IMG/VR virus record: IMGVR_UViG_3300037418_000344 | DNA from: an uncultured virus (IMG/VR IMGVR_UViG_3300037418_000344) | Taxonomy: Duplodnaviria > Heunggongvirae > Uroviricota > Caudoviricetes | DNA: 64,000 nt | Strand: one strand, 5' to 3' | Shown here: one piece after another, positions 3,276 through 40,547 of the stretch | Layout: each line of letters opens with the position of its first letter | Numbering within the stretch: position 1 is the first letter of the stretch | Made by a program: the position numbers and the translations under genes | Notes under the pieces: generated by a model | Databases searched by the model: none | Told to the model about the DNA's origin: nothing | The model's input: only the letters and a program-made list of their open reading frames with translations

Positions 3276-3866
3276 CTAGAATGGACACTCTAAGCTATCA
3301 TCGTAGCTTGTCGATTGCATCCTACCATCCCACGTATAACGGCGCTCTCCGTTCCTGTGATACATTGGGGAACCATCAGGATTAGTTGTAGAACCCTCTT
3401 TATCGGGCGCTGATGGCGTTTTCTCTTTGGATGGCTTCGGAGCTACATTACCCTGCTTTAAACCGCTTGTGTTGCGTTCTCGTGGCTCCTTTGGATCAAT
3501 CTTAACTGATGCCGCAATCACACCCTTTGGACGAGGATTGCCAGACTGCATAAAGCATTCAACAATTTTGAAACCATTGACGTAGTACGTGTTACAGTTA
3601 CCCTTGCCTTTACCGGGCTTGTACTGCATCCACCCACTGTCAACAAGTGACTTTCTTACTTTTTCGATTGTCTTGATATGTATGCCTGTATGCTCGGATA
3701 TAGTTTCTGTGCTAGGCCAGCATTTATATCCCTCACCATCTTTGATGTTGGCGCAGGCTAGTAGGTATGTCAGCACGCGGAATTCTGCGAGTGACAGATT
3801 GACACAAGAGTCCTTACTCTTGCACAGGAGCGTAGAAAGCTCCATTGGGGAGATTGTTTTTTCCAT
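3276..3866 (-). CDS. winged helix-turn-helix protein, replication-initiator-like (HTH_36 type)
   Basis: AEFRVLTYL...CWPSTETISEHTGIHIKTIEKVRKSLVDSGW...NTY pattern typical of phage/plasmid initiator N-termini. Confidence 0.7.
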   Translation of the reverse strand: MEKTISPMELSTLLCKSKDSCVNLSLAEFRVLTYLLACANIKDGEGYKCWPSTETISEHTGIHIKTIEKVRKSLVDSGWMQYKPGKGKGNCNTYYVNGFKIVECFMQSGNPRPKGVIAASVKIDPKEPRERNTSGLKQGNVAPKPSKEKTPSAPDKEGSTTNPDGSPMYHRNGERRYTWDGRMQSTSYDDSLECPF

Positions 3867-7375: not shown

Positions 7376-7726
7376 TCATTCTTCATTCTCCATGATGTAA
7401 CGTTTGATTGCTTCGTCTGCAATAATACGTGCCATCGTAATCGATTCACAAATGCCACGGTTAATACGCAGAATTTTTTGCAAATCATCATCAGTAAAGT
7501 CGCTTTTCGGATATTCCTTTTTTGGTTTGATTCGGTATTCATCTGTATCATGCCATCCCGGATGGGGGCAATCCCGCCATTCTTCAGGCTGCGACCTGTA
7601 CTTATACTGAATTTCTGCCCCATCGGCCCATAATTTTATAAGTGCTGCGTGTTTTTGTGGTGTATTCTTCGAATGTTTGTTCATTTCATCCGCCAAATTC
7701 AATAAAGCCTTTTTCGGATAATTCAT
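7376..7726 (-). CDS. hypothetical phage protein
   Basis: HAALIKLWADGAEIQY...P.W....EYRIKP motif recurrent in phage proteins. Confidence 0.7.
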   Translation of the reverse strand: MNYPKKALLNLADEMNKHSKNTPQKHAALIKLWADGAEIQYKYRSQPEEWRDCPHPGWHDTDEYRIKPKKEYPKSDFTDDDLQKILRINRGICESITMARIIADEAIKRYIMENEE

Positions 7727-7934
7727 TTAATCCTTTTTGTATTATGAGACATGCTTGTCCCTTTTCCCAATCAAGACTTGGTGCACCTTGTATAAGATTC
7801 ATTTGCTTAAATGCTTCTATTGCAGCATGTCGCAACAGTTCGGGGATATTTACATGTGCATATTTACCGTGCTCAACAAGAGTTGGAACGAATTGCGCAC
7901 ATGCAATTAACACAACATCTTTATGATAATTCAT
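7686..7934 (-). CDS. hypothetical protein
   Basis: 82 aa; AAGGAGG RBS. Confidence 0.55.
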   Translation of the reverse strand: MNYHKDVVLIACAQFVPTLVEHGKYAHVNIPELLRHAAIEAFKQMNLIQGAPSLDWEKGQACLIIQKGLNELSEKGFIEFGG

Positions 7935-8447
7935 TTATTCCTCCTTAATGGCATATCCATAAATCATATTCCAATTGCAAAAGTAGTGTATATTGACTTT
8001 TGTAAAGCGCAACACACCGCTGTCTAAACTTACATTTGACGTACCTTTATATGTTGTACTGGTATTATCCGAGTATGTAATTTCAATAGTGTATGTTTTC
8101 TTTTTAAACATCATTCCCCCGTTATTTCGTCAATAAATTTATACAAAGCATTTCGTGTGCGGTCACGCTCTGCAAGTGCAACATCCCATTCAGCTTGTTC
8201 CTTGTTCCTCAAGAGGGCAAGCATGGCTGTTGCTTCAGAGAAAAGGGCTATCTTGAGTTTCAATTCGTGTGCTTGTTGTTTGTTCATTTTTGAGCCTCTT
8301 TCAACTCATCGCAGGCGTCGCACACATCATTAATACTGTCCGGACTTTCGCACCAAATAACCAATTCATCTAACACGCCATGATCTGTAGCTTGTTGTAA
8401 TGCTTTAATCAGGTTGTCTAATGCAATACTTTGAATATGATTGAGTT

Positions 8448-8771
8448 TCATTTCTTCTCCTGTAGCAACATAGTTGCAGCAAATTTAATCGCGGTATCTT
8501 CCGGGTTCCACTCGTAATGTGGTTTGCTAATCTCACCTTTCATGTTGCGCGATTGGCTATAATAAAGCTGCTCCGTGTCTGCGTCCAACACTTCCGCATA
8601 CGAGGCCCCATATTTATTAATTTGGAGATTTCTCATAACGTTAAGGCCAGCTTCAAACAAGTTTGTTCCATGCGTCACTTTGACGACTTCATTGCGGAAT
8701 ACATAACGTGTTTTTAGCTTTGTTGGAGCATTCTTTGTGGCTCCGTTGTTCATTACTATTTTACTTGTCAT
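8448..8771 (-). CDS. hypothetical protein
   Basis: Probable start MTSKIV; upstream TTGACA at 8846-8851. Confidence 0.6.
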   Translation of the reverse strand: MTSKIVMNNGATKNAPTKLKTRYVFRNEVVKVTHGTNLFEAGLNVMRNLQINKYGASYAEVLDADTEQLYYSQSRNMKGEISKPHYEWNPEDTAIKFAATMLLQEKK

Positions 8772-8859
8772 GATAACGCCCTTGGTAGAGTTGACATTGC
8801 TCACGCTCTGTCTATGTGCTTATTATTGCTTGTATTGCTTACCCATGTCAAGAGAAATT

Positions 8860-9051
8860 TTAGTCATTCTCTTCAGGCTGATTCCAAGAGATGACCAACA
8901 CGTCATCTGACAAAAGTTCAATCTTTCGAATATTACTTTCCAGAGCCTTTAATCTAAAAAGTACGCCCATTTGTGCTGCATCCATTCCCTGATGTTCGTA
9001 CGGCATTGCATCAGGCGCTTGTGACGAATACCACCATTTAAGAACTAGCAT
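8860..9051 (-). CDS. hypothetical protein
   Basis: 63 aa; AAGGGG RBS. Confidence 0.55.
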   Translation of the reverse strand: MLVLKWWYSSQAPDAMPYEHQGMDAAQMGVLFRLKALESNIRKIELLSDDVLVISWNQPEEND

Positions 9052-9681: not shown

Positions 9682-9719
9682 GCTGTTTCTCCTAGAAAGT
9701 TTGCGTTATCGATGTGTGT

Positions 9720-9748
9720 ATCTTAAGGTTCTTATTTAAGCCCGTCAA
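9720..9748 (-). promoter_or_regulatory. sigma70-type promoter
   Basis: TTGACG-17-TAAGAT. Confidence 0.7.
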
Positions 9749-9804
9749 GCAACCAAAGCATTAAAAGTTAGAGTATTTCCTCTAATTTAAAGCTTGACTT
9801 TCTA

Positions 9805-9905: not shown

Positions 9906-10112
9906 ATGTCCCGTTCGTTCGACTATCAGTCTGCGTCCGTCGATGCTATCGCCGTTCGCCTTAACACCGTGCAAGACCAAGCGTATTACCGGCTAGTTAC
10001 ATACTACACTAAGAAAAACGACAATACAATGCTTGCCAAATTGGCACAAGCTAAGAAACTTTCTAAGATTTTTAAGTTGCAAGCAGAGTATGCCGAGGAG
10101 TTTGGAAATTGA
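9906..10112 (+). CDS. small 'SFDYQ' protein, partner of the endonuclease
   Basis: AAGGA RBS; ungapped similarity to 27125-27316; stop overlaps the next start (TTGA). Confidence 0.75.
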   Translation: MSRSFDYQSASVDAIAVRLNTVQDQAYYRLVTYYTKKNDNTMLAKLAQAKKLSKIFKLQAEYAEEFGN

Positions 10113-10930
10113 ATTGGTATAGACAGCTTAAACCAGATGACGAAATGATAGCTAAATTCATGGCAACAGGGAGTTATCACGAAGGCACTATTTTTAGTAG
10201 AAGCGAGAAAATTTCTGTAAAGTCACGCCGACCGTACTGGAGTGTAACTTGCCCTATTTGCAGCGGCGACGAATACACGCGGAACGGCCTATGTACAGGT
10301 ACGTTTACTGTTACAGGTGACAACCTAAGAAAAGGTTATATACCTTGCAGGTGTGGGGACAAACCAAACTTCACAGAGGAACAATGGCTTTACAGGATTA
10401 ATAAAAGACTGTTGGATAAAGGTGAGCACATATCTTTCGTAAGAATTGATAAGAACGGAGGAATCTCAAAAAGTAGGTTGCATTTGCACTGTGAATATCA
10501 TGGAGATTTTGACATGGTAGTTAACGGTTTTATGTATACTGAAGGTTCTTGCCCATCCTGCGCTAAGACAGGGTTTAGTAAAGCGTTGCCAGCACATCTA
10601 TACGTGTTAAGAATAGAAGGATTGCATGAATCTTTTACAGGGTTTGGGATTTCAAACCGTATAGAGCACAGGCTTAATTTTCATAAAAAGACACTTGCAA
10701 AATACGGACTGTGCGTAACTGAAACAAGGGTGTTTCCTTGTTCGGGCACTGTTGCGTACGAAATTGAAAACCTTGTTTCTGAAAAATTTCCTTTGCTCAA
10801 CCAAGGTATTTCAGGTTTCATCAGAGAAGCGACACATTTGCATTACTTCTCTGACGTGGTAGACCTTGTAGATACTACTCTCCGAAATAAAATTGACGGC
10901 AATATTGCAGCAACGTATCTTGGTCAATGA
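10109..10930 (+). CDS. zinc-finger + GIY-YIG-like putative homing endonuclease
   Basis: CPIC, CRC, CEYHG, CPSC then HLYVLRI...FTGFGISN...RL..H; homologous to 27313-28539; opposite strand to its surroundings. Confidence 0.7.
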   Translation: MNWYRQLKPDDEMIAKFMATGSYHEGTIFSRSEKISVKSRRPYWSVTCPICSGDEYTRNGLCTGTFTVTGDNLRKGYIPCRCGDKPNFTEEQWLYRINKRLLDKGEHISFVRIDKNGGISKSRLHLHCEYHGDFDMVVNGFMYTEGSCPSCAKTGFSKALPAHLYVLRIEGLHESFTGFGISNRIEHRLNFHKKTLAKYGLCVTETRVFPCSGTVAYEIENLVSEKFPLLNQGISGFIREATHLHYFSDVVDLVDTTLRNKIDGNIAATYLGQ

Positions 10931-11390: not shown

Positions 11391-11440
11391 GGTGTTCTCC
11401 GTTGTGTTTGACGCGGCATCATTGCTGCATCCATGACTGA

Positions 11441-11469
11441 AGTATGCGCCAGTGGATAAAGCGTGTCAA
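11441..11469 (-). promoter_or_regulatory. sigma70-type promoter
   Basis: TTGACA-17-CATACT. Confidence 0.7.
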
Positions 11470-11926
11470 GCACAAAAAGCGAAAATGTTCAAAGAAAGTG
11501 CAGTCAGAGAGAAATGTACTGTGTTTTGGGTAGTAAGTAGGATTGTTATCGAGCCCTATATAGAGCGTGGCACCAGCTTCACTATCTCGCAAATTGTTAT
11601 CACGATAAGCATTTTGAACACCTCGCCCCTTTACATTTTCAAAACGTATTTTCAGCCAAAAGAAATAGCCCGCACAAGGCGAGCCAATAAAAATTTCCAA
11701 AATTGTAGAATGGGCCTCGTTGATCCCAGTATGTTGCGAGTCCCGATTCGACACCCAATTTTCCCATCTGTTCTTCTACTCAATTCCAAAACCATTTCTA
11801 ACGCCCTGCCAAAATAGCTTCCCGCTTTTCTTTCAAATGGTGTTCGTATTGCGCCCAATCCGCAAAAGCAATGAAGCAAACCATCCCAATTCCGATTGCA
11901 ATAAAAGTTTTCTTCACATCATTCTC

Positions 11927-15044: not shown

Positions 15045-15122
15045 TTTGTTTCCTTCTTATGTTTGTTAAGACAGAATAAGTGTAGAGATAAGAATCTTAG
15101 CTGTCAAGAGAAAATTGAGCAC

Positions 15123-15150: not shown

Positions 15151-15208
15151 AAATGCACAACGAGGGTTGTTGTTATCGTCTTGGCGGGACGTTATCTATG
15201 CTCAGTGA

Positions 15209-15874
15209 TTACATGACGCCTTTCAAAAGCTTCACCAATTTCAAAGCAAACTGAAGTTCTGCCTCACTCACTTGCTCGGGTGTGATGCCGGGGCCGGGTA
15301 CAGCAGGTTGAAGCAGGGTGGTCGACTCAGCAGCCACTTGACCCAACTCGGAAAGGTAGCGCTTCATTGCGGCCTCGCTACGTTTGTTCGATTTTTTGGT
15401 GTAAGCACGCTTCGTCTTAGCTTTCTCTCCCGCAGAACGAACAACCTTCGCACCTTCAGGATTGGTTGCTGACGCAACATCCTTCCTCTGTTCCGGCTTG
15501 TTCGTCTCCTTGTCATGCATTTCCTGCGCAAGCTGTTGCAGGGTTTCCGGCTCATCTTTCTTCTCTTCGTCCTTCTGAACAAGCACAAGGTTAGCATCGT
15601 TCAGTTTGCGCGGAAGAGGCTTCGTTTTCGGAAAGCGTTGACGAACTAGGATATCATGCTCAGGAATGTTCTCGTGTTTGGCGTACGCACGAGCCACTTG
15701 CAATGCTTGTTCAGGGTTCAGATGCTCAGTGTGCATGTAGAAATCGTAGCCCACTTCAACAGACTCACCATTCATGAACGCTTTCAGGCGTCCGTTGCCG
15801 TTCTGTTTCGACTCCACGTCAAAAATCACTGGCGTGTTCGTCAGGGGATAGATGCGAGCGATAACCTGTTTCAT
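15209..15874 (-). CDS. hypothetical protein in its own transcription unit
   Basis: AAGGAG RBS before MKQVIAR; promoter TTGACA-18-TAAGAT at 15978-16007; terminator downstream. Confidence 0.7.
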   Translation of the reverse strand: MKQVIARIYPLTNTPVIFDVESKQNGNGRLKAFMNGESVEVGYDFYMHTEHLNPEQALQVARAYAKHENIPEHDILVRQRFPKTKPLPRKLNDANLVLVQKDEEKKDEPETLQQLAQEMHDKETNKPEQRKDVASATNPEGAKVVRSAGEKAKTKRAYTKKSNKRSEAAMKRYLSELGQVAAESTTLLQPAVPGPGITPEQVSEAELQFALKLVKLLKGVM

Positions 15875-16019
15875 GATGTTACTCCTTATATAGTGTTTGA
15901 TTACGTTAGATTGCTTTGCCAGCTTCGACAGCTTTGCTTCTTGTATTGCATCGCTGTGTTGCGCTGTCGATGAATGCATCTTATCGCTACTTATATTCGG
16001 CTGTCAAGAATTTTTTCGT

Positions 16020-16625
16020 ACAACCCCTATCTTTCTGTTCAGAATCGTGCTAGGCAGTGAATTTCCACATCTCACCTGTATGCATAAACAGTTGTTATCC
16101 TGTCCACGTAAGCCAACTCCTACAACATTCTTACAATTCTCACCAAAAAGCGTGAGAATTTGCTGTACATCTACAAAAGAAAGGCGTAACGTGATTGTAA
16201 TTCTTACGAACCCTATCTTCTGTGAGGTAGATAACGCTCAAACAACGATGACGCCCTATCAGAACTACTAGGGCACATGTGGAACATGTCTCGTCACACA
16301 GGCGTAACATGACATATAGGGAAACTGTCCCTCTGCGAAATCTCACATACTAGGTGGGGTAAGGTGATGTTTTGCCTGAAAGAAACAGCAACAATGCTGT
16401 AATGGCGAAGCTTTGTCTAAAACTTTTGAAAGCTGCTCTAGAAGCGGCAGGGAGGGGCTTGCACCGTTCGGTGCTGTGTAGAGGAAGGGCGCGTTTTCAG
16501 AAACGTGTTTTTGAGGATGATGAACGGGCAAGAGGGGCAAGCTCCACACAGTTTCCCGGTAGAGCCTACCCTATGCGTTGATCCCAAGGGTGCTACGTCA
16601 GTGGTTCGGCACCTAATTTTTACTT
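16020..16625 (+). ncRNA. putative large structured non-coding RNA
   Basis: No credible ORF; many hairpins plus long-range helix GGGAAACTGT(16319-16328)/ACAGTTTCCC(16548-16557); G-U pairs favour the + strand; ends are approximate. Confidence 0.55.
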
Positions 16626-16649
16626 GTATTCATTTCTAGGATTTAGAAA

Positions 16650-17279
16650 TCATTTATTAGCCAGAGCAACCATACGCTGCCCAAAAAACACAACTTTCTG
16701 TGCGTCGTACAAACCATCATCGTAGCCCTTCTTAGCAACTCCGAACTTGCGTGCCGCACAAGAGCGCCAGATGGCTTTGAAAGCATTCCCTTCAGCATAG
16801 TTCATACCAAGAGCTTCGATGATATCGTTGCACTCAGCGGTGTAAGGTGCTTTGTCCGGGTCTGTGGGATTGTCTACTGGCACGGTGTAGTAGCTGACGG
16901 AACCACCCGTGTACTCATCGTCTTGTTGTTCCACTTCATCTTCTACAATTTCAAATCGGTGTTGCGACCAAGAGCATTTCATACCTTCAAGATAGAAATC
17001 GCATGCATCGTTCCACACGTTTTCGCCAATCGCAGTGTAAACTTTTCCTTCCTCAAGCTGTTCTTCTGCGTTCATGTTGTCAATGCAACGTACACGGAAC
17101 GGAAATTTTAGTTGCTCTTTAATCACTTCGCAATGCTCAGGGCCAATACCTACGTTCTTATCCTCTACAAGTGGGTAGTAATCATAACCGCCTCGGTGCA
17201 CTGGCTTGCTCTCCACTTCGTATTCTTCCCCCACTTTGTACCAGTTGTCATCTGTGACACGGGTTACTCGTACTCGCAT
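16650..17279 (-). CDS. DUF3310-like protein with two N-terminal SH3-like repeats
   Basis: ECNDIIEALGMNYAEGNAFKAIWR...DAQK; AGGAGG RBS. Confidence 0.7.
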   Translation of the reverse strand: MRVRVTRVTDDNWYKVGEEYEVESKPVHRGGYDYYPLVEDKNVGIGPEHCEVIKEQLKFPFRVRCIDNMNAEEQLEEGKVYTAIGENVWNDACDFYLEGMKCSWSQHRFEIVEDEVEQQDDEYTGGSVSYYTVPVDNPTDPDKAPYTAECNDIIEALGMNYAEGNAFKAIWRSCAARKFGVAKKGYDDGLYDAQKVVFFGQRMVALANK

Positions 17280-17310
17280 GATTCCTCCTAAAATTGTTGT
17301 GAACGTGTGT

Positions 17311-17414
17311 ATGATGGCACAGTAGAGCTTCTATGTCAAGCCCCTCTGCGTAAGATTTCTAACAACAGCCGTAAGAATTTTGCGCTTGACATGATCTTCA
17401 TCGCAGCCTACAAT
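17311..17414. promoter_or_regulatory. divergent sigma70 promoter pair at the strand switch
   Basis: Minus: TTGACA-17-CATCAT (17311-17339); plus: TTGACA-17-TACAAT (17386-17414). Confidence 0.75.
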
Positions 17415-17441
17415 GAGCGAACATTTTGACAAGGAGGGTGT

Positions 17442-21404: not shown

Positions 21405-21719
21405 GTGAAAAAGTCCGTAATTGTCCGCACAGAAAAACATTACGAAATCGACATCGCTGATAGCGTTCTTACTCAAGAATTCATCAACGAGTTTGAATCG
21501 TATATGTTTGCGCTTGATGGCGACACTTTAGAGGAAAAGCAGAACAATCTGTTTGAGTTTGCTGCACGTCAGCTTGCTCAAGGTGAGGAATATTTCATCG
21601 AAGGGCTTGGTAAGATTGCTAGTGTGAACACTGTAAAGTTCAAGCAAGATCGAGGTGATAAGATCGATGTTGTGTGGAAAGAGACTTATGACGGTGTTGA
21701 GACGGAGGTGGTAGGGTGA
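21405..21719 (+). CDS. hypothetical protein
   Basis: GTG start overlapping the previous stop; AAGGAG RBS. Confidence 0.6.
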   Translation: MKKSVIVRTEKHYEIDIADSVLTQEFINEFESYMFALDGDTLEEKQNNLFEFAARQLAQGEEYFIEGLGKIASVNTVKFKQDRGDKIDVVWKETYDGVETEVVG

Positions 21720-22270
21720 CTGCGAAATACCACGACTACATTCGGTATGCCGTTGATCGTGGTTGTTGGTTCGACTTTGACACAGGGGAATTTGTAAGTC
21801 ACACTGGCCTTAGAAAAATACCAAAGCTTTATGGAAAGCAGAGGTATCCTTCTACAGCTATTATGAGAAAACAGCATTTTCCAATCCACAAATTTGTTGC
21901 GTATTTGTTATACGGAGAGATTTCTTTTGCCGCTGATGTGGAGGTTCGGCATTTAGATGGCAATACTCTCAACTTAAGCAAAGAAAATATTGTTTTAGGT
22001 ACATCCGCAGATAATCAGATGGATAAAAGTTCAGATGCACGTTCAGCGGCAGCAAGGAAAGCACGCGCAGCACAGTCTCGCCCAACAAACTCTGTGTTGA
22101 CAGAGGATCAAGTTAAAGAAATAAAACTTTGGTACAAACTGCTAAAACAGAAGTACCCCAAGAAATTACCAAACGGTAGTTTGAAGAATAAGGCAAAAGA
22201 TTTTGGAGTTACCGTGCATTGCATTGGTGGCATTGTTAATGAAATTATTTGGAAAGATGTAAATGTTTAA
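21716..22270 (+). CDS. HNH homing endonuclease
   Basis: HKFVA...VRHLDGNTLNLSKENIVLGTSADN, plus C-terminal HTH-like part. Confidence 0.8.
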   Translation: MTAKYHDYIRYAVDRGCWFDFDTGEFVSHTGLRKIPKLYGKQRYPSTAIMRKQHFPIHKFVAYLLYGEISFAADVEVRHLDGNTLNLSKENIVLGTSADNQMDKSSDARSAAARKARAAQSRPTNSVLTEDQVKEIKLWYKLLKQKYPKKLPNGSLKNKAKDFGVTVHCIGGIVNEIIWKDVNV

Positions 22271-24440: not shown

Positions 24441-25333
24441 AAGAAGTCTTTGAAGATTTAATCTTGCTACTCAAGCTCAACAGCGACCAGTATTTCTACG
24501 AAGCTGAGGACGGTTCAGATGTGTTCGATGCTACAGCGCTCTACTCGGAAATTAGAGGGTTTGCTGAGGAATTTCAGAAGAGGATTCAATGAATATCATT
24601 GACAAGATTGAACAGCAATGGCTCTCCTACGTGGGAGAAACAGGCCGTATGCCAAAATACCTCTACTTGGGTCAACAAGAGGCTACAGCACTAGACAAAC
24701 TCAAGGGCATGTTCGTCATCTCGCACAAGGATATGTTTGTTGTTATGGTGGAGAAGGATTCGTGGCTGAGTGTTGGGGATAAATATGCGGAGGAAGTGTG
24801 AACAAGTATAAGATTCATATTAAAGGTGGTGTTATCACTGTTTGTTTAATTAAAGATGACTCTGTTCGCGCATTCTACTTCGATGCAGGTTGTGATCAGA
24901 AGGGCTCTGCACAAGAGATGTACGACTTGCTTTTGAGCACGGGTGCAGATGTGGAGGAGTGGGAGGGTTGATGGGTTATCAAACTAATAAAGAGGAGTTG
25001 TGTCAAGACTCATATTGGGTACAGCAAGGGCACACTGAAGATGAAGACGGAAATCCTTTAGTAAGTCGTTGTGAATGGGTGGTTGACAGTACGTACAGCG
25101 ATGTTTGTAAAACTTGTGGTGCTATAGCTTGGTATGGATAGTGGGGGATTGATGCAAGATAAATTTGAAATTGAGGTGCACGGTGATGGTGTACAAGTGT
25201 GGGCAACTAACTGGAAGGGTGGCTCTGGGCTTGCTGCTGACATAAGAACGGACATGACCCGGAAAGAGATTGCACAAGAACTTTATGATTTGCTTGCGAT
25301 GAGTGGGCGTGAGGTGAAGTTTAAGGAGGGTTG

Positions 25334-27070
25334 ATGATTTCTAACGAGCCATGCCCACAATGTCGTAAAGCGGGACATGACACAGCAGGGGATAACCTTG
25401 TCAATTACGGAGAAGGCATGGGGAAGCATTGCTTTGCCTGTGGCTTTTCCATTTTGAGCGATGCTGAGCGTAAAGCCCGTGGCGTCGATAACTACGAATA
25501 TGACGATGAAGAGGTTATGACTAAAGAACTTATTACTCAAGAAGAAGTTGAGAAAATCAAGGGGTACACAGGGGTCAACGGACAGAACTGTCGTGGCATC
25601 ACTGATGAAACTTATAAAGCTTATGCCTGCCGGTTCAAGTTTGACGAAGAAACTGGCAATGTCGCTGAAGTGTTTTACCCTTACACGGAAGGATACAAAC
25701 CTGCAGGTTTCAAAGTTAGGAAGTTGCCAAAGGAGTTCTATAGTGTAGGCAAGATTGGCAAGGATTCTGAGCTTTTCGGGCAGTGGAAGTGGAAGAACAG
25801 TGTTGGCCGATACTTGTTGATCTGTGCCGGGGAAGTTGATGCCTTGTCGGCTTACCAGATGCTTGAAAATTATCGAAAAGGTAAGGGGAGTGACTTTGAT
25901 CCAATACCAGTAGTTTCTAGCGGCATTGGTGAGGCAGGTAGCTACAAACAAATTCAAAAACACTACGACTGGATCAACAACTTCGATAAGATTGTTGTCT
26001 GCTACGACAACGACGATGCTGGCAAGGACGCTGTTAAGAAGCTTGTTGATGTACTACCAAAAGGTAAGATGTTTGTGATGAAGTTGTCGCTCAAGGACGC
26101 TAACGAGTATCTTGAGAAAGGCCGTGAGAAGCAGTTCGTAAGCTTGTTCTATTCTGCCCCTGCATACAGCCCTGACGGCATCATTGGCAGTGACAGCCTC
26201 ATGGATAAGATTATTGAGCAAGCCCGTACGCCTAAGATTCCTCTGCCGCCATTCATGCACAAGGTTCAGAAGGAGATGGCAGGCGGAATTCCGCTAGGTG
26301 TCATTGTCAATCTTGCATCTGCAAGTGGAACAGGTAAGAGTACTATCGTAGATGAGTGCACGTACTTTTGGGTGTTCAACAGCCCTCATCGTATTGGTGT
26401 TGTTACTCTTGAGAGTGATAGTGGGCAGTATGGCACTAAGATTCTTAGCCGTCACATCGGGCGTAAGATCGATCTTATCGAGGATGTAGATGAGAAGATT
26501 GAGTTTATCCAAAGTGAAGAAGTTCAAGCTAAGGCTAAGGAACTGTGGTATAATGAAGACGGAACTCCGCGCTGGCATCTTGTAGAGGAGCGTGATGGGG
26601 GGATTGAGAGTCTTAAAGACCTCATTATGAATCTCATCATTGCTTGCGGCTGTAAGGTGATTATCCTTGATCCGTTGCAAGACATCCTTGATGGACTCAG
26701 TAATGAGGAGCAGGCTGTGTTCATGCGTTGGATGAAGGGCATGGTCAAGAGTCACCAGTGCACTTTCATTAACGTAAATCACGTGCGCAAGTCCGGTAGC
26801 GGGCAGAAGGCCAACTCTACTGGCGCTAATATGCATGAAGAAGACATTCATGGTTCGTCTGCAATTCTGAAGTCGGGTGCCTGCAACCTCATCTTCACTC
26901 GTAACAAAGAGGCAGAGGACGAAACTGAGAAAAATACCACGCACATGAAGATGAGTAAGTGCCGCTGGACGGGTCGTACAGGTATGGCTGGCAAGTACTA
27001 CTACGACAATGTTACTCACACTATGCATGACATGGATGATTGGTTGCAGCAGAACCCTCAGCAGTTTTAA
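25334..27070 (+). CDS. DNA primase-helicase (T7 gp4-like)
   Basis: Zn finger CPQC/CFAC, TOPRIM GEVDA and YDNDDAG, Walker A SGTGKST, IILDPL, HVRK. Confidence 0.93.
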   Translation: MISNEPCPQCRKAGHDTAGDNLVNYGEGMGKHCFACGFSILSDAERKARGVDNYEYDDEEVMTKELITQEEVEKIKGYTGVNGQNCRGITDETYKAYACRFKFDEETGNVAEVFYPYTEGYKPAGFKVRKLPKEFYSVGKIGKDSELFGQWKWKNSVGRYLLICAGEVDALSAYQMLENYRKGKGSDFDPIPVVSSGIGEAGSYKQIQKHYDWINNFDKIVVCYDNDDAGKDAVKKLVDVLPKGKMFVMKLSLKDANEYLEKGREKQFVSLFYSAPAYSPDGIIGSDSLMDKIIEQARTPKIPLPPFMHKVQKEMAGGIPLGVIVNLASASGTGKSTIVDECTYFWVFNSPHRIGVVTLESDSGQYGTKILSRHIGRKIDLIEDVDEKIEFIQSEEVQAKAKELWYNEDGTPRWHLVEERDGGIESLKDLIMNLIIACGCKVIILDPLQDILDGLSNEEQAVFMRWMKGMVKSHQCTFINVNHVRKSGSGQKANSTGANMHEEDIHGSSAILKSGACNLIFTRNKEAEDETEKNTTHMKMSKCRWTGRTGMAGKYYYDNVTHTMHDMDDWLQQNPQQF

Positions 27071-27124: not shown

Positions 27125-27316
27125 ATGAGCTTTGATTACCAGAATAGCACTCTTGAAGAACTTGCAGAATACATTGAAACTGCAACACCTCAAGTAATTT
27201 CAACCATGATTCGTTATTATGCCAACAAAGGTAATACTGAGATGGAAAATAAGATTCGTGGGGCTCGCAAGATTGTTGTCAAAAAGCGTGCTCTGGCCCG
27301 TTTGGAGGCAATGTGA
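27125..27316 (+). CDS. small 'SFDYQ' protein, partner of the endonuclease
   Basis: Paralogue of 9906-10112; stop overlaps the next start (GTGA). Confidence 0.75.
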   Translation: MSFDYQNSTLEELAEYIETATPQVISTMIRYYANKGNTEMENKIRGARKIVVKKRALARLEAM

Positions 27317-28539
27317 CAGCGAAATATATTCCGGGATATGTTAAAAACGGATTGACAATTGTTGAGAGGGTAGAGCATGACGGTAGAAAATATTTCCGAG
27401 TAAAGTGCGACAAGTGTGCATCGGATAGCGAGATGTATGGGGATGGGACGTTCTTGCAAGCAACCAACTCATTTTCTAGAGGGAATGTTCCTTGCGGTTG
27501 TAGTGCAAACTACGAGATGTCTAAAGAGCAGTACGAAACTCTTCTGCGCAGGAAATATGTGGGGCTAGATCACGAGTTTGTTGGAATTTTTGCGGAGTGG
27601 AATCGTTCATTGACGAAAGCAGAAATGTTCTGTAAAATTCATAACAAGACGTGGGAAAGTACATATGTTAGCAAACTGTTGGGAAAAGAGTGCGGCTGTC
27701 CGTACTGCAAAGCAGAAAACTCTAGGGTTAGGGCCACTAAAGAGAGCGAAGAATTAATCAGAAAGTTCTTTAATACTGGTGTGTACCACCCTGACACCAA
27801 ATTCCTTAGAGGTACACGTACTCACTCTTGGTATTACTTATGCCCTGTTTGTAAGAATGATGAGTTTGCAAGCGCAGGTCTATGCGATGGGATTTTTCAG
27901 AGTACAACTGCAAAGCTTGGGCAAGGATTATTGGCATGTAGGTGTTCTCATATTTATAAGTGGCCTATTGCTTTAAGGGAGTATCAAGTAGTAACTGCAT
28001 TGCTAGGAAGCAAATATACATTCAAGGGTTGGGCCGAGGGGTACGTCGGCAGTAAGTCGAAAGTATCTATACAGTGTCTTGAACACGGAACCTTCGATAT
28101 TGGATTACAGAGTTTTTTGAACGGTAGTCGATGTGCAAGCTGCGTACAGGGAGGGTATAAGCGACTAAGTGACGTGGGGTATGTCTACGCACTGAAAATT
28201 GAAGGGTTTGCGGACTCGTTTGTTGGTTTTGGGGTCACAAACAATTTTGACAGAAGACTAAAGCAACACACTGCACAGTTAGGGAAGCATGGATATCACG
28301 TTGATATGTCTTACGTCCTAAAGACGACTGGGGCAATTGCATTCGACTTGGAGAAGGAAATCAAATCTAACTTCCCGTTGAAAAGGGTTGGTGTAAAGGG
28401 TTTTGTAAGTGAGGCAATGCCATCTTCACAGTATTTAAAACTTATAGATTTTATAAAGGAAAGCGGGTACATATATGAAGGCACAATTAGTTCAGCGCAA
28501 CATAGCAGTATTGTCACAGGTTCTAACGGGCCTGTATGA
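27313..28539 (+). CDS. zinc-finger + GIY-YIG-like putative homing endonuclease
   Basis: Duplicated Cys/His modules then YVYALKI...FVGFGVTNNFDRRL..H; homologous to 10109-10930. Confidence 0.7.
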   Translation: MTAKYIPGYVKNGLTIVERVEHDGRKYFRVKCDKCASDSEMYGDGTFLQATNSFSRGNVPCGCSANYEMSKEQYETLLRRKYVGLDHEFVGIFAEWNRSLTKAEMFCKIHNKTWESTYVSKLLGKECGCPYCKAENSRVRATKESEELIRKFFNTGVYHPDTKFLRGTRTHSWYYLCPVCKNDEFASAGLCDGIFQSTTAKLGQGLLACRCSHIYKWPIALREYQVVTALLGSKYTFKGWAEGYVGSKSKVSIQCLEHGTFDIGLQSFLNGSRCASCVQGGYKRLSDVGYVYALKIEGFADSFVGFGVTNNFDRRLKQHTAQLGKHGYHVDMSYVLKTTGAIAFDLEKEIKSNFPLKRVGVKGFVSEAMPSSQYLKLIDFIKESGYIYEGTISSAQHSSIVTGSNGPV

Positions 28540-29485: not shown

Positions 29486-31426
29486 GTGGGGATTTATGCG
29501 GCAGATATTGAAACGACTGGACTTCTGGAGCAAATGCAGAAGCAGGCCAATCCTAAATTGCACAACTTCTGCGCTATTGACATTGATACGCCCCACACGA
29601 TTCTTTTTGAGGGGCATCAGCGCAATGACTTACAGGAGTTTCTGAATCAAGGCCACACGCTTGTGATGCATAATGGCAAGTTGTTCGACATGGAGGCTCT
29701 TAAGCTTCTTGGCTATGATGTATCTCGTGTGAATCTTATCGACACGCTTGCACTAAGCTGGTATCTTGAACCAAATCGAATGAAACATGGCTTGGCAGAG
29801 TATGGCGAAGAGTTTGGCGTACCTAAGCCTGCTATTGAGGATTGGGAGAATCAAACACAAGAGGAATATAACCATCGTGTGCAGGAAGATTGCAAGATTC
29901 AGAAAAAGTTGTGGCAGAGGCAGGTGGCAAAGCTGAATGTGCTGTACGGCACCCAGCCTGATGCGCATAAGAAGATTATTGCGTATCTGATGCAGAAGAT
30001 GGAGGAGTTTCGCCAGCAGCAGCAGAATCGCTGGAAGCTTGATGTAGAAGGGGCGATTGCCCTGCAAGCAGAGCTTGAGAAGGCCATTGAGGAGAAGACT
30101 GAGGCATTGCGACAAGTGATGCCGAAGGTGCCTGAGTATGTTGTGCGCAAGCGACCTACGGCGTGTTTTAAAAAGAATGGCGAGATGTCCGAAGCTGGAA
30201 AACGATGGTTGGAGGTTACAGAACAAGCAGGTCTTCCGTTTGAACACACAGGCGATATCAAAGTTGTCAAAGGGTGGAACATCGGCAACCCAGCTTCACA
30301 CACACAGATCAAAGCTTGGCTGGACAGTTTGGGTTGGGAGCCGATCACCTTTAAATTTGTACGTGGTGAGAATGGTGAGCCGGATAGGAATATTCCTCAG
30401 ATCAACTTGAAAGGCGGCGAAGTTTGCCAAAGCGTGAAAGACTTAATACCTAAGTGTGAAGGTATTGAGCACATTGCTGGTCTTGGAATTCTTAACCATC
30501 GTGTAAGTGTGGTGAAAGGGTTCTTACGGGACCACATTGACGGTGAAGTGACAGCCCGTATGCAAGGGTTCACAAATACTTTGCGCGTTCAACATCGTGA
30601 AATCGTGAATCTACCAAGTTTACGAGTTAAATATGGAGAACAGCTTCGCGGATTGCTGATGGCGCGACCCGGTATGAAGCTACTTGGCTCGGACGAATCA
30701 TCTCTTGAAGACCGCCTCAAGCATCACTTCCAATGGAAGCTTGATCCAGAGTATGTGAAGTCACAGATGACTAAGGGTTTTGATCCGCATAACACAATCG
30801 CAGTGATTGCAGGGCTGATGACTCAAGCTGATGCAGATTGGTATTCTCAGTACAAAGCATTGCCAAAGTCTGAGCACACGGCAGATGGGGATAGGAAGTT
30901 TGAGCGTATTGATGCTGTGCGTGCGGTTGGCAAAAGTACCAACTATGCGTGTCAGTATGGGGCCGGGGCGGCAACCATTGCCCGCACTGCCAAGGTAAGT
31001 ATGGCTGTAGCTAAGAAGTTACATGCCGCATACCACAAGATGAACTGGAGTATCGCTAAGATTGCCAGTATGATGGTTGTGAAGAAGACAGATTTTGGAG
31101 ATTGGCAGCTAAACCCAATCAACAAAATGTGGTACTCACTTCGCTCTGACAAGGACAGGTTTTCTACGCTGATTCAGGGTACTGGGGCTTACACGCTAGA
31201 CCTGTGGCTTTATCACTGCGAGCGTCTTGCAAAACAGCGAGGGCTGCAATGGAAGCTGCTAGGGCAAATGCACGATGAGCTAATCGCAGAGGTGCCAGAG
31301 GGTGAAGAAGATGTTTATCGTCAACTTGTTGCAGATGCTATGGGCAAAGTAAACGATCAACTGAAGCTTAACAGGGAACTTGCGTGCGATATTAATTTTG
31401 GGGAGCGGTATTCGGACATTCACTAA
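29486..31426 (+). CDS. DNA polymerase, family A, with 3'-5' exonuclease
   Basis: Exo I DIETTG; motif A GSDESSLEDR; motif B RAVGKSTNYACQYG; motif C MHDE. Confidence 0.95.
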   Translation: MGIYAADIETTGLLEQMQKQANPKLHNFCAIDIDTPHTILFEGHQRNDLQEFLNQGHTLVMHNGKLFDMEALKLLGYDVSRVNLIDTLALSWYLEPNRMKHGLAEYGEEFGVPKPAIEDWENQTQEEYNHRVQEDCKIQKKLWQRQVAKLNVLYGTQPDAHKKIIAYLMQKMEEFRQQQQNRWKLDVEGAIALQAELEKAIEEKTEALRQVMPKVPEYVVRKRPTACFKKNGEMSEAGKRWLEVTEQAGLPFEHTGDIKVVKGWNIGNPASHTQIKAWLDSLGWEPITFKFVRGENGEPDRNIPQINLKGGEVCQSVKDLIPKCEGIEHIAGLGILNHRVSVVKGFLRDHIDGEVTARMQGFTNTLRVQHREIVNLPSLRVKYGEQLRGLLMARPGMKLLGSDESSLEDRLKHHFQWKLDPEYVKSQMTKGFDPHNTIAVIAGLMTQADADWYSQYKALPKSEHTADGDRKFERIDAVRAVGKSTNYACQYGAGAATIARTAKVSMAVAKKLHAAYHKMNWSIAKIASMMVVKKTDFGDWQLNPINKMWYSLRSDKDRFSTLIQGTGAYTLDLWLYHCERLAKQRGLQWKLLGQMHDELIAEVPEGEEDVYRQLVADAMGKVNDQLKLNRELACDINFGERYSDIH

Positions 31427-31500: not shown

Positions 31501-32337
31501 ATGGAAGAAATCTGGAAAGATGTGTACCATGAAGGTGTGTATGTTGGTAAGAAGATTAGCAGTCTTGGTAGATTGATGGGGGATAACGGCCTCATTTATG
31601 CGCAAGCAGATAATGGCGCAGGCTATAAATTTTACAACATTCTCCACTTTAGAAATGAAGAAGGTAAGAGTCGATCCGTTCGCAGGTATGTACACCGCTT
31701 GGTTGCAGAGTACTTTATCGACAACCCTGATAGTTTACCTCAAGTAAACCATACCGACGGTGATAAAAGCAATAACCGGGTTGACAACTTAGAGTGGACT
31801 AGTGGTAGCCAAAACATTCGGCTGGCACACAAAGCTGGACAAATGCGAAACAGGACTGATGCTGGAGATGTTGATATTCTGACAGTCGAACAAGTGATTG
31901 ACCTGTACACTGCCATTAAGAGGGATAAGGTTGGTATCTCTGCAAAAGCAAGAGAATTAGGCATTCCAAGGACAACAGCCAGCAGTATTGTCAACAAGCG
32001 CAGTCGCAGTTATATAACTGATGCTATTGATGACTATCTGCTAACGGATAATGTTGTGTATGATAGAAATCTTACGCGAGAAGATTTAGGCTTTGGGGCC
32101 AACCAAAATTTGTACAGAATTCATGAGAAACCTCGTTCAGACAGCAGTTCTGGTATTATCGGAGTTTACACCTACATTGCAGAAGACAAATACCCAATGT
32201 GGTATTGCGTTTGGCCGCTTGGCAATGGTAAAATGGGCAGCAAGCATTTTAGCGTAGGTAAATTCGGAGATGAAGGTGCAAAGCAAAAAGCCATTTCATA
32301 CCGAGAAGAGATGATGAAGCAAGTATCACAACACTAA
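31501..32337 (+). CDS. HNH homing endonuclease (NUMOD4-like, HNH, HTH, AP2-like)
   Basis: EEIWKDV..ISSLGR; VHRLVA..VNHTDGDKSNNRVDNLEW; SGIIGV..KHFSVGKFG..A..YR. Confidence 0.85.
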   Translation: MEEIWKDVYHEGVYVGKKISSLGRLMGDNGLIYAQADNGAGYKFYNILHFRNEEGKSRSVRRYVHRLVAEYFIDNPDSLPQVNHTDGDKSNNRVDNLEWTSGSQNIRLAHKAGQMRNRTDAGDVDILTVEQVIDLYTAIKRDKVGISAKARELGIPRTTASSIVNKRSRSYITDAIDDYLLTDNVVYDRNLTREDLGFGANQNLYRIHEKPRSDSSSGIIGVYTYIAEDKYPMWYCVWPLGNGKMGSKHFSVGKFGDEGAKQKAISYREEMMKQVSQH

Positions 32338-38988: not shown

Positions 38989-39600
38989 ATGATGAAACAG
39001 CTTCCAGATAAATTTCAAATGCGTACTTACGGTTTTCCCGGATTCACTCACACTGTAAAGCTCAACCCGCATGGTGACTACGAAGTGACGTGGGCACGAG
39101 GGTTTGATCGCAAGAGCTATTCGATGGGCAAAATGCTGCCGAATGTTGTGTTTACGGAAGAAGAGGTGCGGAAAAACGTAGCGGGTTGCTTGTGGTATGT
39201 TGTGGAGGACACACCGGCGCAAAAGGAAATGAGTGCTAGTATGCCTGATGAGTTCATTGCGAGCAATACATTCAGTCGTAGTAGTTGGTCCATGAAGAAA
39301 GACGGCGCCACTTGGCGTGCATACTGCTTAGAAGGCGGGACACTTCTCTCAATTAATTATTACAGCGAAGATGATGTTCGCAACTACATTAAAAAAGGCA
39401 CTTGGACGATTCAAGAGCGGGTCGCACTCACAGCCGAACAGCAACGCGCTCTGAAAGAGTTCAAAGAACAAGTCGCACAACTCGACCAATCTATCAAGCT
39501 GAATGAACAGGACATCGCTCACAAGGAACATCTCATTGGAAACTATCGTCAACGTCAAGATGATCTTCGCAAGAAGATTGAAGAACTGGAGGGCAAATGA
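38989..39600 (+). CDS. hypothetical protein (tandem domain plus coiled coil)
   Basis: FTEEEVRKNV...W / YSEDDVRNYI...W repeat; AAGGAG RBS. Confidence 0.65.
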   Translation: MMKQLPDKFQMRTYGFPGFTHTVKLNPHGDYEVTWARGFDRKSYSMGKMLPNVVFTEEEVRKNVAGCLWYVVEDTPAQKEMSASMPDEFIASNTFSRSSWSMKKDGATWRAYCLEGGTLLSINYYSEDDVRNYIKKGTWTIQERVALTAEQQRALKEFKEQVAQLDQSIKLNEQDIAHKEHLIGNYRQRQDDLRKKIEELEGK

Positions 39601-40547
39601 ATATTGCAGATAAAGATTGGGCAGTGGAAGCCGTACGACTTGCCAATGAGCATCCTGATATGTCGTGGCGTGAAATCTCTCGCCGGATCGGTGTTGCGAA
39701 GTCTACTGTGTCGGACAACCTGCGCAAGTACTTCAAGTTCCGCGAAACTGAAGTGGAAGCTGTAGAAGGTGTTGTTCCAAAGGGTGCTAAGATTCTTCTG
39801 CTTGATATCGAGTGTGCCCCTACTACAGCATATGTGTGGGGCCGTTGGGATAACAATGTTAGCCAGAAGCAAGTTGTACACGAGGGTTATCTGCTGACGT
39901 ATTCTGCCAAGTGGCTTGGTGAGCCAACTATTGTGTCGAATCGAATCTACGAAGCTCGCAACGATGAAGTGCTTGTACGAGAGCTTGCAGACCTGATGAG
40001 CCAAGCGGACCTGTGCGTGGCACACAATGCGCAGAAGTTCGACATTCCACTCATCAAGACTCGCATGGTTGCTCTTGGGATGACGCCTCCTGCATCTAGT
40101 AAGATTGTAGATACGCTTCGGATTGCTAAGGCCGAGTTCCGCTTCCCAAGCAACAGTCTTGACAGTATTGCAGCATATCTTGGCCTGCAACGTAAAGCAA
40201 GCCATAGCGGCTTTGAACTGTGGACTCGCTGCATGGCTATGGACGATGAGGCATTTGACGAGATGCTTGAATATAACATTCAGGACGTCGTAGTGCTGGA
40301 GGAAGTGTATATGCGTTTGCGCCACTGGAGTAAGACACATCCCAATGTAGCCCTGTATGAACCTGCTGGAAAGCTGCGTTGTGTTTGCTGCGGTAGTGAA
40401 AAGCTGGCGGAGATTGATAAGAAATATTACACTGCAACATCTGAGTTTATGCTGTATAATTGCCTTTCTTGTGGGAAGCAAAATCGGGGACGTAAGAATG
40501 TCTCTGAACACAAGAGCGATAACAGTCTTACGAACGTGGGGAGGTAA
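39597..40547 (+). CDS. HTH + DnaQ/RNase H-like exonuclease + Zn ribbon
   Basis: SWREISRRIGVAKSTVSD; LLDIE; HNAQKFDIP; YNIQDV; CVCC/CLSC. Confidence 0.85.
   Translation: MNIADKDWAVEAVRLANEHPDMSWREISRRIGVAKSTVSDNLRKYFKFRETEVEAVEGVVPKGAKILLLDIECAPTTAYVWGRWDNNVSQKQVVHEGYLLTYSAKWLGEPTIVSNRIYEARNDEVLVRELADLMSQADLCVAHNAQKFDIPLIKTRMVALGMTPPASSKIVDTLRIAKAEFRFPSNSLDSIAAYLGLQRKASHSGFELWTRCMAMDDEAFDEMLEYNIQDVVVLEEVYMRLRHWSKTHPNVALYEPAGKLRCVCCGSEKLAEIDKKYYTATSEFMLYNCLSCGKQNRGRKNVSEHKSDNSLTNVGR

Follow-up and report, generated by a model that had tools for sequence, protein, structure and literature searches.

The 64,000-nucleotide (nt) window analysed here, which is the whole stretch taken from the IMG/VR record IMGVR_UViG_3300037418_000344 of an uncultured tailed phage, raises the question of what is encoded by a gap of ~770 nt (15875-16649) flanked by two minus-strand genes, 15209-15874 and 16650-17279. 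The initial annotation had read positions 16020-16625 as a candidate ~600-nt multi-domain RNA, naming GOLLD and ROOL as examples of large phage RNAs. A single RNA of that kind is not supported, and the gap is better described, as far as its sequence can be read, as three things: control DNA in the left ~300 nt, a plus-strand hairpin domain in the middle, and in the right ~110 nt a 3′ module that appears to belong to a minus-strand 3′ untranslated region (UTR). The case for an RNA in the middle domain draws on the homology and conservation of the gap, a conserved plus-strand promoter (P1), compensatory change in hairpins H1 to H3, the lack of a conserved reading frame and a strand bias of the helices; the synthesis of such an RNA, its ends and its role are inferred. 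We give a real, functional plus-strand RNA in the gap about an even chance, in which case it would likely represent a new, clade-restricted phage non-coding RNA (ncRNA) gene convergent with an early transcript.

Compensatory change and strand bias in the hairpin domain

Relatives of the locus were gathered from IMG/VR by protein-anchored scans and pattern scans, and the comparison set after duplicate removal held 15 sequences from ~11 lineages of one clade. In related IMG/VR contigs this gene pair encloses homologous gaps, 708-814 nt long. Their identity to the window ranges from 90% (relative L010) down to ~50%, with a mean column identity of 56% across the gap alignment. In L008 the gap is 85.6% identical over 479 nt (window 16193-16650) and the flanking protein of 222 amino acids (aa) only 49% identical, so that the gap element is better conserved than its neighbour. 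Among the four closest sequences the RNA region is mosaic, its two halves (5′ and 3′) pairing up differently, which together with the L008 contrast suggests recombination inside the element. Viral contigs scanned with a pattern for a conserved 17-mer at the right end of the gap yielded 15 stretches, 11 of which fit the gap profile and the remaining 4 of which read as unrelated sequence. The same pattern returned 18 stretches from metagenomes (0/18 fit the profile), a gapped pattern returned none from metagenomes, and a collection of cultured phages gave no DNA match to the gap.

Three short hairpins in the middle of the gap keep their pairing in these relatives while their letters change. A hairpin of at least four pairs stands at the H1 place in 14 of the 15 sequences, built from 7 different stem sequences (including CUCAC/GUGGG, CCCUC/GAGGG, CCGUG/CACGG and CCUGU/AUGGG), and the stems at H2 include ACAGCA/UGCUGU, CCGCU/AGUGG, CUACGC/GCGUGG and CCACUGA/UCAGUGG. 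We scored H1 and H2 together with a covariance model (R1) built from one clade, using the model-fitted alignment of its 10 matches: 91.4% of cells were paired vs 74.3% in shuffled alignments (0/500 as high) and 35-57% in slid controls, with both-sided changes in 7/10 pairs. H3 was scored on the MAFFT alignment of the 15 sequences, which is not fitted to structure, and here too 91.4% of cells were paired, vs 78.4% after shuffling and 13-55% in slid controls; both-sided changes occur in 3/5 pairs, and none of 500 shuffles reached either the observed pairing or the observed covariation score. The base pairs of H1 to H3 are maintained by compensatory substitutions beyond these controls, which supports the earlier proposal of a conserved, non-coding plus-strand element antisense to its neighbours. 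Run on the raw MAFFT alignments, RNAalifold recovered only H3 and a weak GGG/YCY helix overlapping H1. The match of model R1 is displaced one unit downstream in L010 and L014, which shows that the domain is made of repeated modules of the form hairpin + G(U/A)AGGG + CUAUYGYC + U-rich.

H4, the last hairpin of the domain, is followed by a U-run and would be the terminator of a plus-strand RNA. It pairs at 8, 8, 8 and 7 of 8 positions on the plus strand vs 6, 6, 5 and 6 on the minus strand in the four close relatives, and only L004 has a different stem at this place (GUGCG/CGCAC). Neither H4 with its UUUUU nor the GGUGC/GCACC hairpin with UUUUU near the end of the gap was listed by the terminator scan.

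Pairing on the two strands differs through G-U pairs, which become A-C mismatches on the opposite strand. Local folds are better on the plus than on the minus strand in 12/15 sequences at H1, 15/15 at H1b, 10/15 at H2, 11/15 at H3 and 13/15 at H4. A strand-neutral helix search gave GU:AC counts of 15:4 for H1 (null ratio 1.9), 8:5 for H2 (1.1), 16:8 for H3 (1.6) and 43:2 for H4 (4.4). Overall the counts tilt towards the plus strand, with a clear bias at H1 and H4 and a weak one at H2 and H3. The initial annotation had drawn attention to helices whose G-U pairs work only on the plus strand; this stands for H1, H3, H4 and two long-range helices, and the hairpin at 16535-16571 has the opposite bias. 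The coordinates of all features are collected in Table 1.

Table 1. Features mapped in and around the gap (window coordinates; assignments of function are putative).
Feature	Position	Strand	Details
P(-), predicted sigma-70 promoter of the 222-aa gene	15978-16007	-	TTGACA, 18 nt, TAAGAT; 10/12 consensus matches; then CATCGAC
O1, first copy of repeat TTCnTACnAnCCCTATCTTtCTGT	16015-16040		just upstream of the P(-) -35; conserved block in alignments
Operator-like palindrome GTGAATTTCCAC	16057-16068		conserved block
Operator-like motif CTGTATGCATAAACAG	16076-16091		conserved block
Two GTGAGAAT-type half sites	16135-16143, 16152-16160		9-bp inverted pair AATTCTCAC/GTGAGAATT, upstream of P1
P1, candidate promoter	16164-16192	+	-35 TGTACA (16164-16169), 17 nt, -10 TAACGT (16187-16192); predicted start ~16199
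O2, second copy of the O1 repeat	16201-16226		repeat and conserved block
O3, palindrome GCCCTATCAGAACTACTAGGGC around CCCTATCAGAA	16253-16274		CCTATCAGAA and TAGG almost invariant in all relatives
P2, possible promoter	16301-16312	+	second copy GGCG-TAACRT-GA; -10-like TAACAT (16305-16310), no -35; start ~16317
ncRNA candidate, core form	16199 (P1) or ~16317 (P2) to 16513	+	from promoter to H4 and U-run; read-through end 16621
H1 hairpin	16340-16360	+	core CUCAC (16342-16346)/GUGGG (16354-16358), extended AUCUCAC/GUGGGGU, then GUAAGG
H2 hairpin ACAGCA/UGCUGU	16385-16400	+	followed on the minus strand by UUUCUUUC: also a terminator-like minus-strand site (scan match)
H3 hairpin GCUGC/GCGGC	16432-16448	+	one U-G pair
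Hairpin GCACC/GGUGC	16461-16474	+	restricted to the window, L002 and L008; its segment is missing in L010 and every distant relative
H4 hairpin GCGCGUUU/AAACGUGU, then UUUUU	16489-16512	+	stem 16489-16508; position conserved
13-bp hairpin GGGUAGGCUCUAC ... GUGGAGCUUGCCC	16535-16571	-	~80 nt 3′ of the stop codon of gene 16650-17279
Conserved 17-mer (C)UCGUUGAUCCCAAGGG	16574-16590		then 28 variable nt and ARUUU in every copy; no gap in columns, 14 sequences
Terminal hairpin GGUGC (16589-16593)/GCACC (16609-16613), then UAAUUUUU	16589-16621	+	abuts the stop codon of the minus-strand gene
Paralogue of the 3′ module (last ~155 nt)	11637-11791	+	nhmmer E 3.2e-10

The conservation of the gap does not follow a reading frame. 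Described at first as free of open reading frames (ORFs), the gap does contain ORFs of 68, 68, 69 and 124 aa, none of which is conserved in frame. We consider it extremely unlikely that the gap codes for one or more small proteins, from the 69-aa or a 44-aa ORF on the plus strand, the 68-aa ORFs on the minus strand or the 124-aa plus-strand ORF (15897-16271). These ORFs are present, and the 124-aa one is open in L010 and L002; against coding, similarity to relatives is spread over several frames or declines with distance, the minus-strand ORFs of L004 and L005 merely translate the C-rich strand into Pro/Ser-rich sequences that are dissimilar as proteins, and G-rich sequence is naturally poor in stop codons. 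The 124-aa ORF starts at a TTG (15897) that no ribosome-binding site precedes, runs across the field of promoters and operators, fades among distant relatives and was judged spurious.

Promoters and operator-like sites in the left part

Positions 15875-16200 read as promoter and operator DNA and would lie outside the RNA. Within them, the minus-strand promoter P(-) has GTCAA, ATCTTATC and GTCGATG invariant or almost so in 11 relatives. It falls in a family of minus-strand early promoters (8805-8873, 9701-9752, which is weaker, 15083-15117 and 15961-16007) that share TTGACA, a spacer of 17-18 nt, a TAAGAT-like -10 and CATCGA(C/T) at the transcript start.

A pattern for P1, TKTACA-N17-TANNNT, is found at the homologous place in 15/17 related gaps, on the plus strand only, and is missing from L007 and L014. 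T1, A2 and T6 of the -10 are invariant across relatives and positions 3-5 vary, which is the pattern expected of a working -10. The initial annotation had reported no strong plus-strand promoter; P1 is indeed weak by consensus, yet it is conserved. The 13-mer AGGCGTAACnTGA, correctly reported to occur twice (16182 and 16300), covers the -10 region of P1 and a second -10-like element, P2, whose motif G..GTA..AT is invariant in 11 sequences; its variants TAACAT, TAGGAT, TAGTAT and TACTAT keep T1, A2, A5 and T6. Since the P2 element lies ~21 nt downstream of the palindrome in most relatives, a second start of the activator type is possible near 16317, and P2 may act as a promoter. A further P1-like match at 8055-8083 lies inside a small gene and was taken as chance. 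A promoter of the T7 type was considered for ACATATAGGGAAA, which we take to resemble the T7 start region, and was rejected, as the motif is not repeated in the window; the polymerase family PF00940 was not detected in the near-identical record G001 by a search whose control stayed silent.

Repeated sites surround these promoters. O1 and O2, the two copies of TTCnTACnAnCCCTATCTTtCTGT, form a direct repeat (D1, 16015-16033 and 16201-16219, 84%). The stems and repeats first listed for the region are all where they were placed, including a perfect pair of 10 base pairs (bp) at 16319-16328/16548-16557 and the 9-bp pair at 16135-16143/16152-16160. The reading of this 9-bp pair as an RNA hairpin did not hold: it lies upstream of P1, and its two GTGAGAAT-like copies are direct, inverted or everted in the alignment of relatives, so that protein-binding DNA fits and an RNA stem does not. 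The motif CCCTAT was also correctly counted four times on the plus strand (16025, 16211, 16254 and 16569) and stands once more on the minus strand (16316), which places 5 of the window's 21 copies inside 550 nt.

Such an array of sites could mean that the gap is conserved as DNA, either as a replication origin, possibly with an R-loop primer of G-rich RNA on a C-rich template, or as a dense array of regulator sites. The cumulative GC skew has its minimum at 16001-17000, the five CCCTAT(C) sites are oriented, CTAT[CT] occurs 40 times on the plus strand vs 19 on the minus strand in 13 gaps (~21 expected), palindromes and half-site pairs vary in orientation among relatives, and the promoter reads into G clusters. 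R-loop origins exist in ColE1 and T4, and this phage encodes its own primase/helicase, family A polymerase and O-like/DnaD-like initiator (3276-3866). The skew minimum, however, is sufficiently explained by the change in gene direction (17300-17440) with which it coincides, and Tandem Repeats Finder returned no arrays at a minimum score of 30 and hence no tandem iterons. Sites made of a hairpin plus U-run would release an RNA, and compensatory change in short hairpins is unexpected for sites in duplex DNA. We regard a DNA-level element as decidedly unlikely to account for the gap.

The minus strand and the shared 3′ module

The right part of the gap (16535-16650) is a module common to the main gap and to a second gap in the window, 11391-11797, and the loci of 7 relatives contain second copies of it. 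Its shared parts comprise an H4-like hairpin with U-run, the 17-mer CUCGUUGAUCCCAAGGG, exactly 28 variable nt and ARUUU. Searched as a trans target, the 28-nt variable segment matched nowhere else in the window. The copy in the second gap falls between a minus-strand gene's stop and a canonical terminator on that strand (11686-11666), which makes it part of a minus-strand 3′ UTR.

The 13-bp hairpin at 16535-16571 points the same way in the main gap. Across the four close relatives, 13, 13, 11 and 13 of its 13 positions pair on the minus strand, vs 10, 10, 9 and 10 when read as plus-strand RNA, and all three plus-strand mismatches in the window are of the A-C type, for which we estimate a chance of ~0.2 cubed. 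The z score of the minus-strand fold is -4.4 for the window and averages -3.0 across the 15 sequences. RNAalifold predicted 0 pairs in the 3′ module on the raw MAFFT alignment. The stretch 16535-16650 reads better as a structured 3′ UTR of the upstream minus-strand gene than as plus-strand RNA.

The same 3′ sequences are used by two long-range helices on which an enclosing fold had been proposed, and these helices thus compete with the hairpin at 16535-16571, which fits the minus strand better. For the 10-bp helix, 10, 9, 10 and 10 of 10 plus-strand positions pair in the four closest relatives, where a C-G pair is exchanged for U-A once, and a second helix (16454/16537) pairs at 9, 9 and 8 of 9 among close relatives; by our own arithmetic a stretch of 950 nt should contain ~0.4 perfect 10-bp inverted pairs. 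We found no counterpart of either helix in distant relatives, which by eye have local hairpins instead, namely H0 on the 5′ side and a central GGCG-AAGCUU-UGCC. An enclosing multi-domain fold is therefore confined at best to the closest relatives.

At the very end of the gap, a hairpin precedes a U-run in every relative, in differing registers, and the stretch 16589-16621 reads by its form as a back-up plus-strand terminator.

On a rival reading, the conserved features as a whole belong to the minus-strand transcript, with any plus-strand RNA incidental. The gap would then serve the upstream early gene as a long 3′ UTR and zone of termination, in which a protective or terminator hairpin (16571-16535) is followed by a C-rich, G-poor tract that could serve for Rho loading and ends before P(-). 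Beyond the 13-bp hairpin and the placement of the second-gap module, the H5/H6 stretch folds better on the minus strand in 10/15 sequences (mean z -3.0), and 16400-16385 is a terminator-like site on that strand. Folding of 16020-16625 gave a z score of -3.01 on the minus strand (0/20 shuffles as good) and -2.03 on the plus strand (1/20); 16300-16625 gave -2.20 and -1.82, and 16199-16621 on the plus strand -2.29 (2/100 shuffles as good). The region had been called heavily base-paired, and what holds of this is a folding only modestly above chance. Rho favours C-rich, G-poor, unstructured RNA, and the minus strand has a C content of 0.29-0.36 and a G content of 0.14-0.23 across ~200 nt in all lineages.

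The composition fits a Rho-dependent terminator and the presence of structure does not. A Rho zone is expected to be unstructured and free in sequence, yet H1 to H3 are kept by compensatory change, and the G-U pairs of the plus strand turn into A-C mismatches on the minus strand. Many blocks are conserved in sequence, as are the plus-strand promoter and the plus-strand sites of hairpin plus U-run. Rho-dependent terminators such as lambda tR1, as generally described, resemble the gap in having a C-rich, G-poor early-strand tract between a gene and the next promoter and differ from it in that the gap has conserved hairpins with compensatory change and conserved sequence blocks. We hold a purely minus-strand origin of the conserved features to be unlikely, with an appreciable chance.

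Several further results weigh against a plus-strand RNA. The 13 sequencing runs listed with the 15200-17300 sequence are all of DNA, from soil or rhizosphere, and none (0/13) is of RNA. P1 is weak (7/12 consensus matches), is not listed by the promoter scan and, in the window alone, has a pattern at chance level. The G excess on the plus strand is equally a C excess of the minus-strand transcript. Folding lies only about two standard deviations beyond shuffles, and the region as a whole folds no better on the plus than on the minus strand; for the 5′ domain the mean z scores are -1.66 on the plus strand and -1.26 on the minus strand. Not all helices favour the plus strand: 16535-16571 fits the minus strand better, as does H2 in L002, where the variant makes 6/6 pairs on the minus strand and 5/6 on the plus strand. 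Model R1 matched 10/15 sources and missed the window's own copy. H4 has 91.4% of cells paired in the MAFFT alignment yet no both-sided change, and the terminal hairpin at 16589-16621 pairs no better than shuffles, so that compensatory change in the related gaps, where a covariation check had been called for at the outset, is seen for H1, H2 and H3 and not for H4 or the 3′ module. Finally, counts over the relatives are not independent, because the sequences represent ~11 lineages of one clade.

Other features of the second gap (11391-11797) are a P1-like TGTACT-17-TAGGAT (11515-11543), a promoter on the minus strand (11469-11441) and a pair of TTATCACGA-type repeats. This gap may encode a shorter plus-strand RNA of ~130 nt, and it repeats the layout of the main gap in miniature. 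A stretch at first taken for a third gap (7686-8451) holds four tiny minus-strand genes of 55-82 aa with overlapping or abutting ends.

A candidate regulatory RNA and its genomic setting

The simplest model that fits the plus-strand RNA and the 3′ module together has two convergent transcription units ending face to face. The sigma-70-like P1 would fire away from P(-), sharing with it an operator field of CCCTATC-type and GTGAGAAT-type sites. Its product would be a G-rich, non-coding transcript of 200 to 420 bases with the short hairpins H1, H2 and H3, each followed by an unpaired G(U/A)AGGG-type stretch, and would stop at H4 and its U-run (~16512) or, after read-through, at 16621. It would head toward the convergent mRNA of the upstream early gene, whose 3′ UTR would carry the 17-mer and the 13-bp hairpin (16571-16535). 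In composition, 16199-16513 has a G content of 0.30 and a C content of 0.18 in the window, and in each of the 11 lineages tested the middle part (~16317-16513) lies at G 0.29-0.36 and C 0.14-0.23.

Such an RNA would most likely be a cis-encoded regulatory RNA of the early region, controlled by the operators of P(-) and acting on termination, read-through or stability of the convergent transcript; alternatively, its repeated modules of hairpin and G-tract may bind a protein. More specific versions are quite unlikely as they stand: an antisense switch that pairs or collides with the C-rich tail of the early transcript and so makes it terminate, be degraded or be read through, or a sponge whose tandem hairpin and GUAGGG modules titrate an RNA-binding protein of host or phage, either of which would make a new phage RNA family. 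A G-quadruplex was considered and rejected, since four close G tracts are seen by eye in only some relatives.

By all appearances the candidate fits no described RNA family, as judged against Rfam 15 (4227 families), in keeping with the initial annotation, which could assign it to none. The 64-kilobase (kb) window has no match at the gathering threshold, for example to GOLLD, ROOL, tRNA, tmRNA, CsrB/Rsm, ToxI or 6S; a covariance search of 15700-16900 gave only 4 chance-level matches (E 2.9-8.2, 9-16 bits vs thresholds of 45-50), and 13 relatives' loci gave none. A tRNA or tmRNA was rejected, ARAGORN having found 0 genes. A type III antitoxin of the ToxI kind was rejected on the absence of tandem arrays, the degenerate modules and neighbours that match no toxin-type family. 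GOLLD and ROOL, as represented in Rfam, are like the candidate in being phage-borne, non-coding and found by comparative analysis; unlike them, the candidate has no covariance-model match even at E up to 10, is far smaller (0.2-0.4 kb) and is made of simple hairpins with modest folding energy.

The kind of element would be a familiar one, a phage ncRNA set against early genes; its G-rich modular build and face-to-face layout seem unusual. The lambda OOP RNA and similar phage cis-antisense RNAs, which we describe here and below as they are commonly known, are likewise short ncRNAs with their own host-type promoter inside an oppositely oriented early region, and OOP converges on the 3′ end of the upstream gene and terminates at a hairpin and U-run. 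The candidate differs from OOP in being 3 to 5 times longer, G-rich and multi-hairpin, with no sequence similarity; its core form would not overlap the neighbour's coding sequence and perhaps not the neighbour's transcript.

CsrB, RsmY/Z and CrcZ also alternate short hairpins with a repeated unpaired purine motif and end in a terminator hairpin; in the candidate, by contrast, the repeat is G(U/A)AGGG after the hairpin and not GGA in the loop, and there is no Rfam match. A CsrA/RsmA sponge was rejected on the window's hairpin loops (AUACUAG, ACAA, UCUAGAA, GUUC and UCAG), none of which contains GGA; GGA occurs inconsistently in the H2 or H3 loops of some relatives. The R-loop primers of ColE1 (RNA II) and T4 oriF resemble the candidate in that a promoter reads into a G-rich, partly structured transcript, which here lies at a GC-skew minimum in a phage with its own replisome. 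They are unlike it in that its G-rich part is followed by terminator-like sites and no adjacent unwinding element was identified.

To our knowledge, few phage-encoded ncRNAs have been described beyond model phages, and uncultured soil phages have contributed almost none. The candidate is concrete, with promoters, operators, hairpins and stop sites mapped and homologues in ~11 lineages. If the RNA is real, it would give a handle on early-gene timing in a phage clade, and if the minus-strand reading is right, the gap would be an example of a conserved, structured terminator zone.

The switch in gene direction near the gap lies at ~17300, with minus-strand genes to the left and plus-strand genes to the right, and divergent consensus promoters stand at 17339 (minus strand) and 17386 (plus strand). 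The 222-aa gene downstream of P(-) (15209-15874, minus strand; start codon assigned in this analysis) encodes a protein that matched no Pfam or PHROG family and had no usable Atlas match. Its AlphaFold model has a mean predicted local distance difference test score (pLDDT) of 66.5, is confident in the N-terminal domain only, and gave no Foldseek match in the PDB at E <= 0.001. On the other side of the gap, only the C-terminal ~85 aa of the 209-aa gene product (16650-17279, minus strand) are widespread among phages. At the DNA level this part is 67-76% identical to T7-like phages of Yersinia, Klebsiella and Pectobacterium and to large Vibrio phages; it also matches the tail of a PHROG annotated as 3′-phosphatase/5′-polynucleotide kinase and looks like a widely exchanged domain.

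The 89-kb IMG/VR record G001 is 100% identical over 15200-17300 and has only 41% of the window's words in common. The closest cultured phages are those of the Pseudomonas phiPsa374 group, with 56% identity in the primase/helicase. The window is part of a tailed phage with a tape-measure gene (57087-62333, minus strand), an endolysin, NrdAB and thymidylate synthase, and its replication genes include the primase/helicase at 25331-27070 beside the polymerase and initiator named above. The family A polymerase domain and a 'polymerase exonuclease subunit' are encoded by two separate genes 8 kb apart (29486-31426 and 39597-40547). Several genes for HNH-type endonucleases are present, and four of the HNH/CapR type (10109-10930, 21716-22270, 27313-28539 and 31501-32337) break up the replication module, one of them placed immediately after the polymerase gene.

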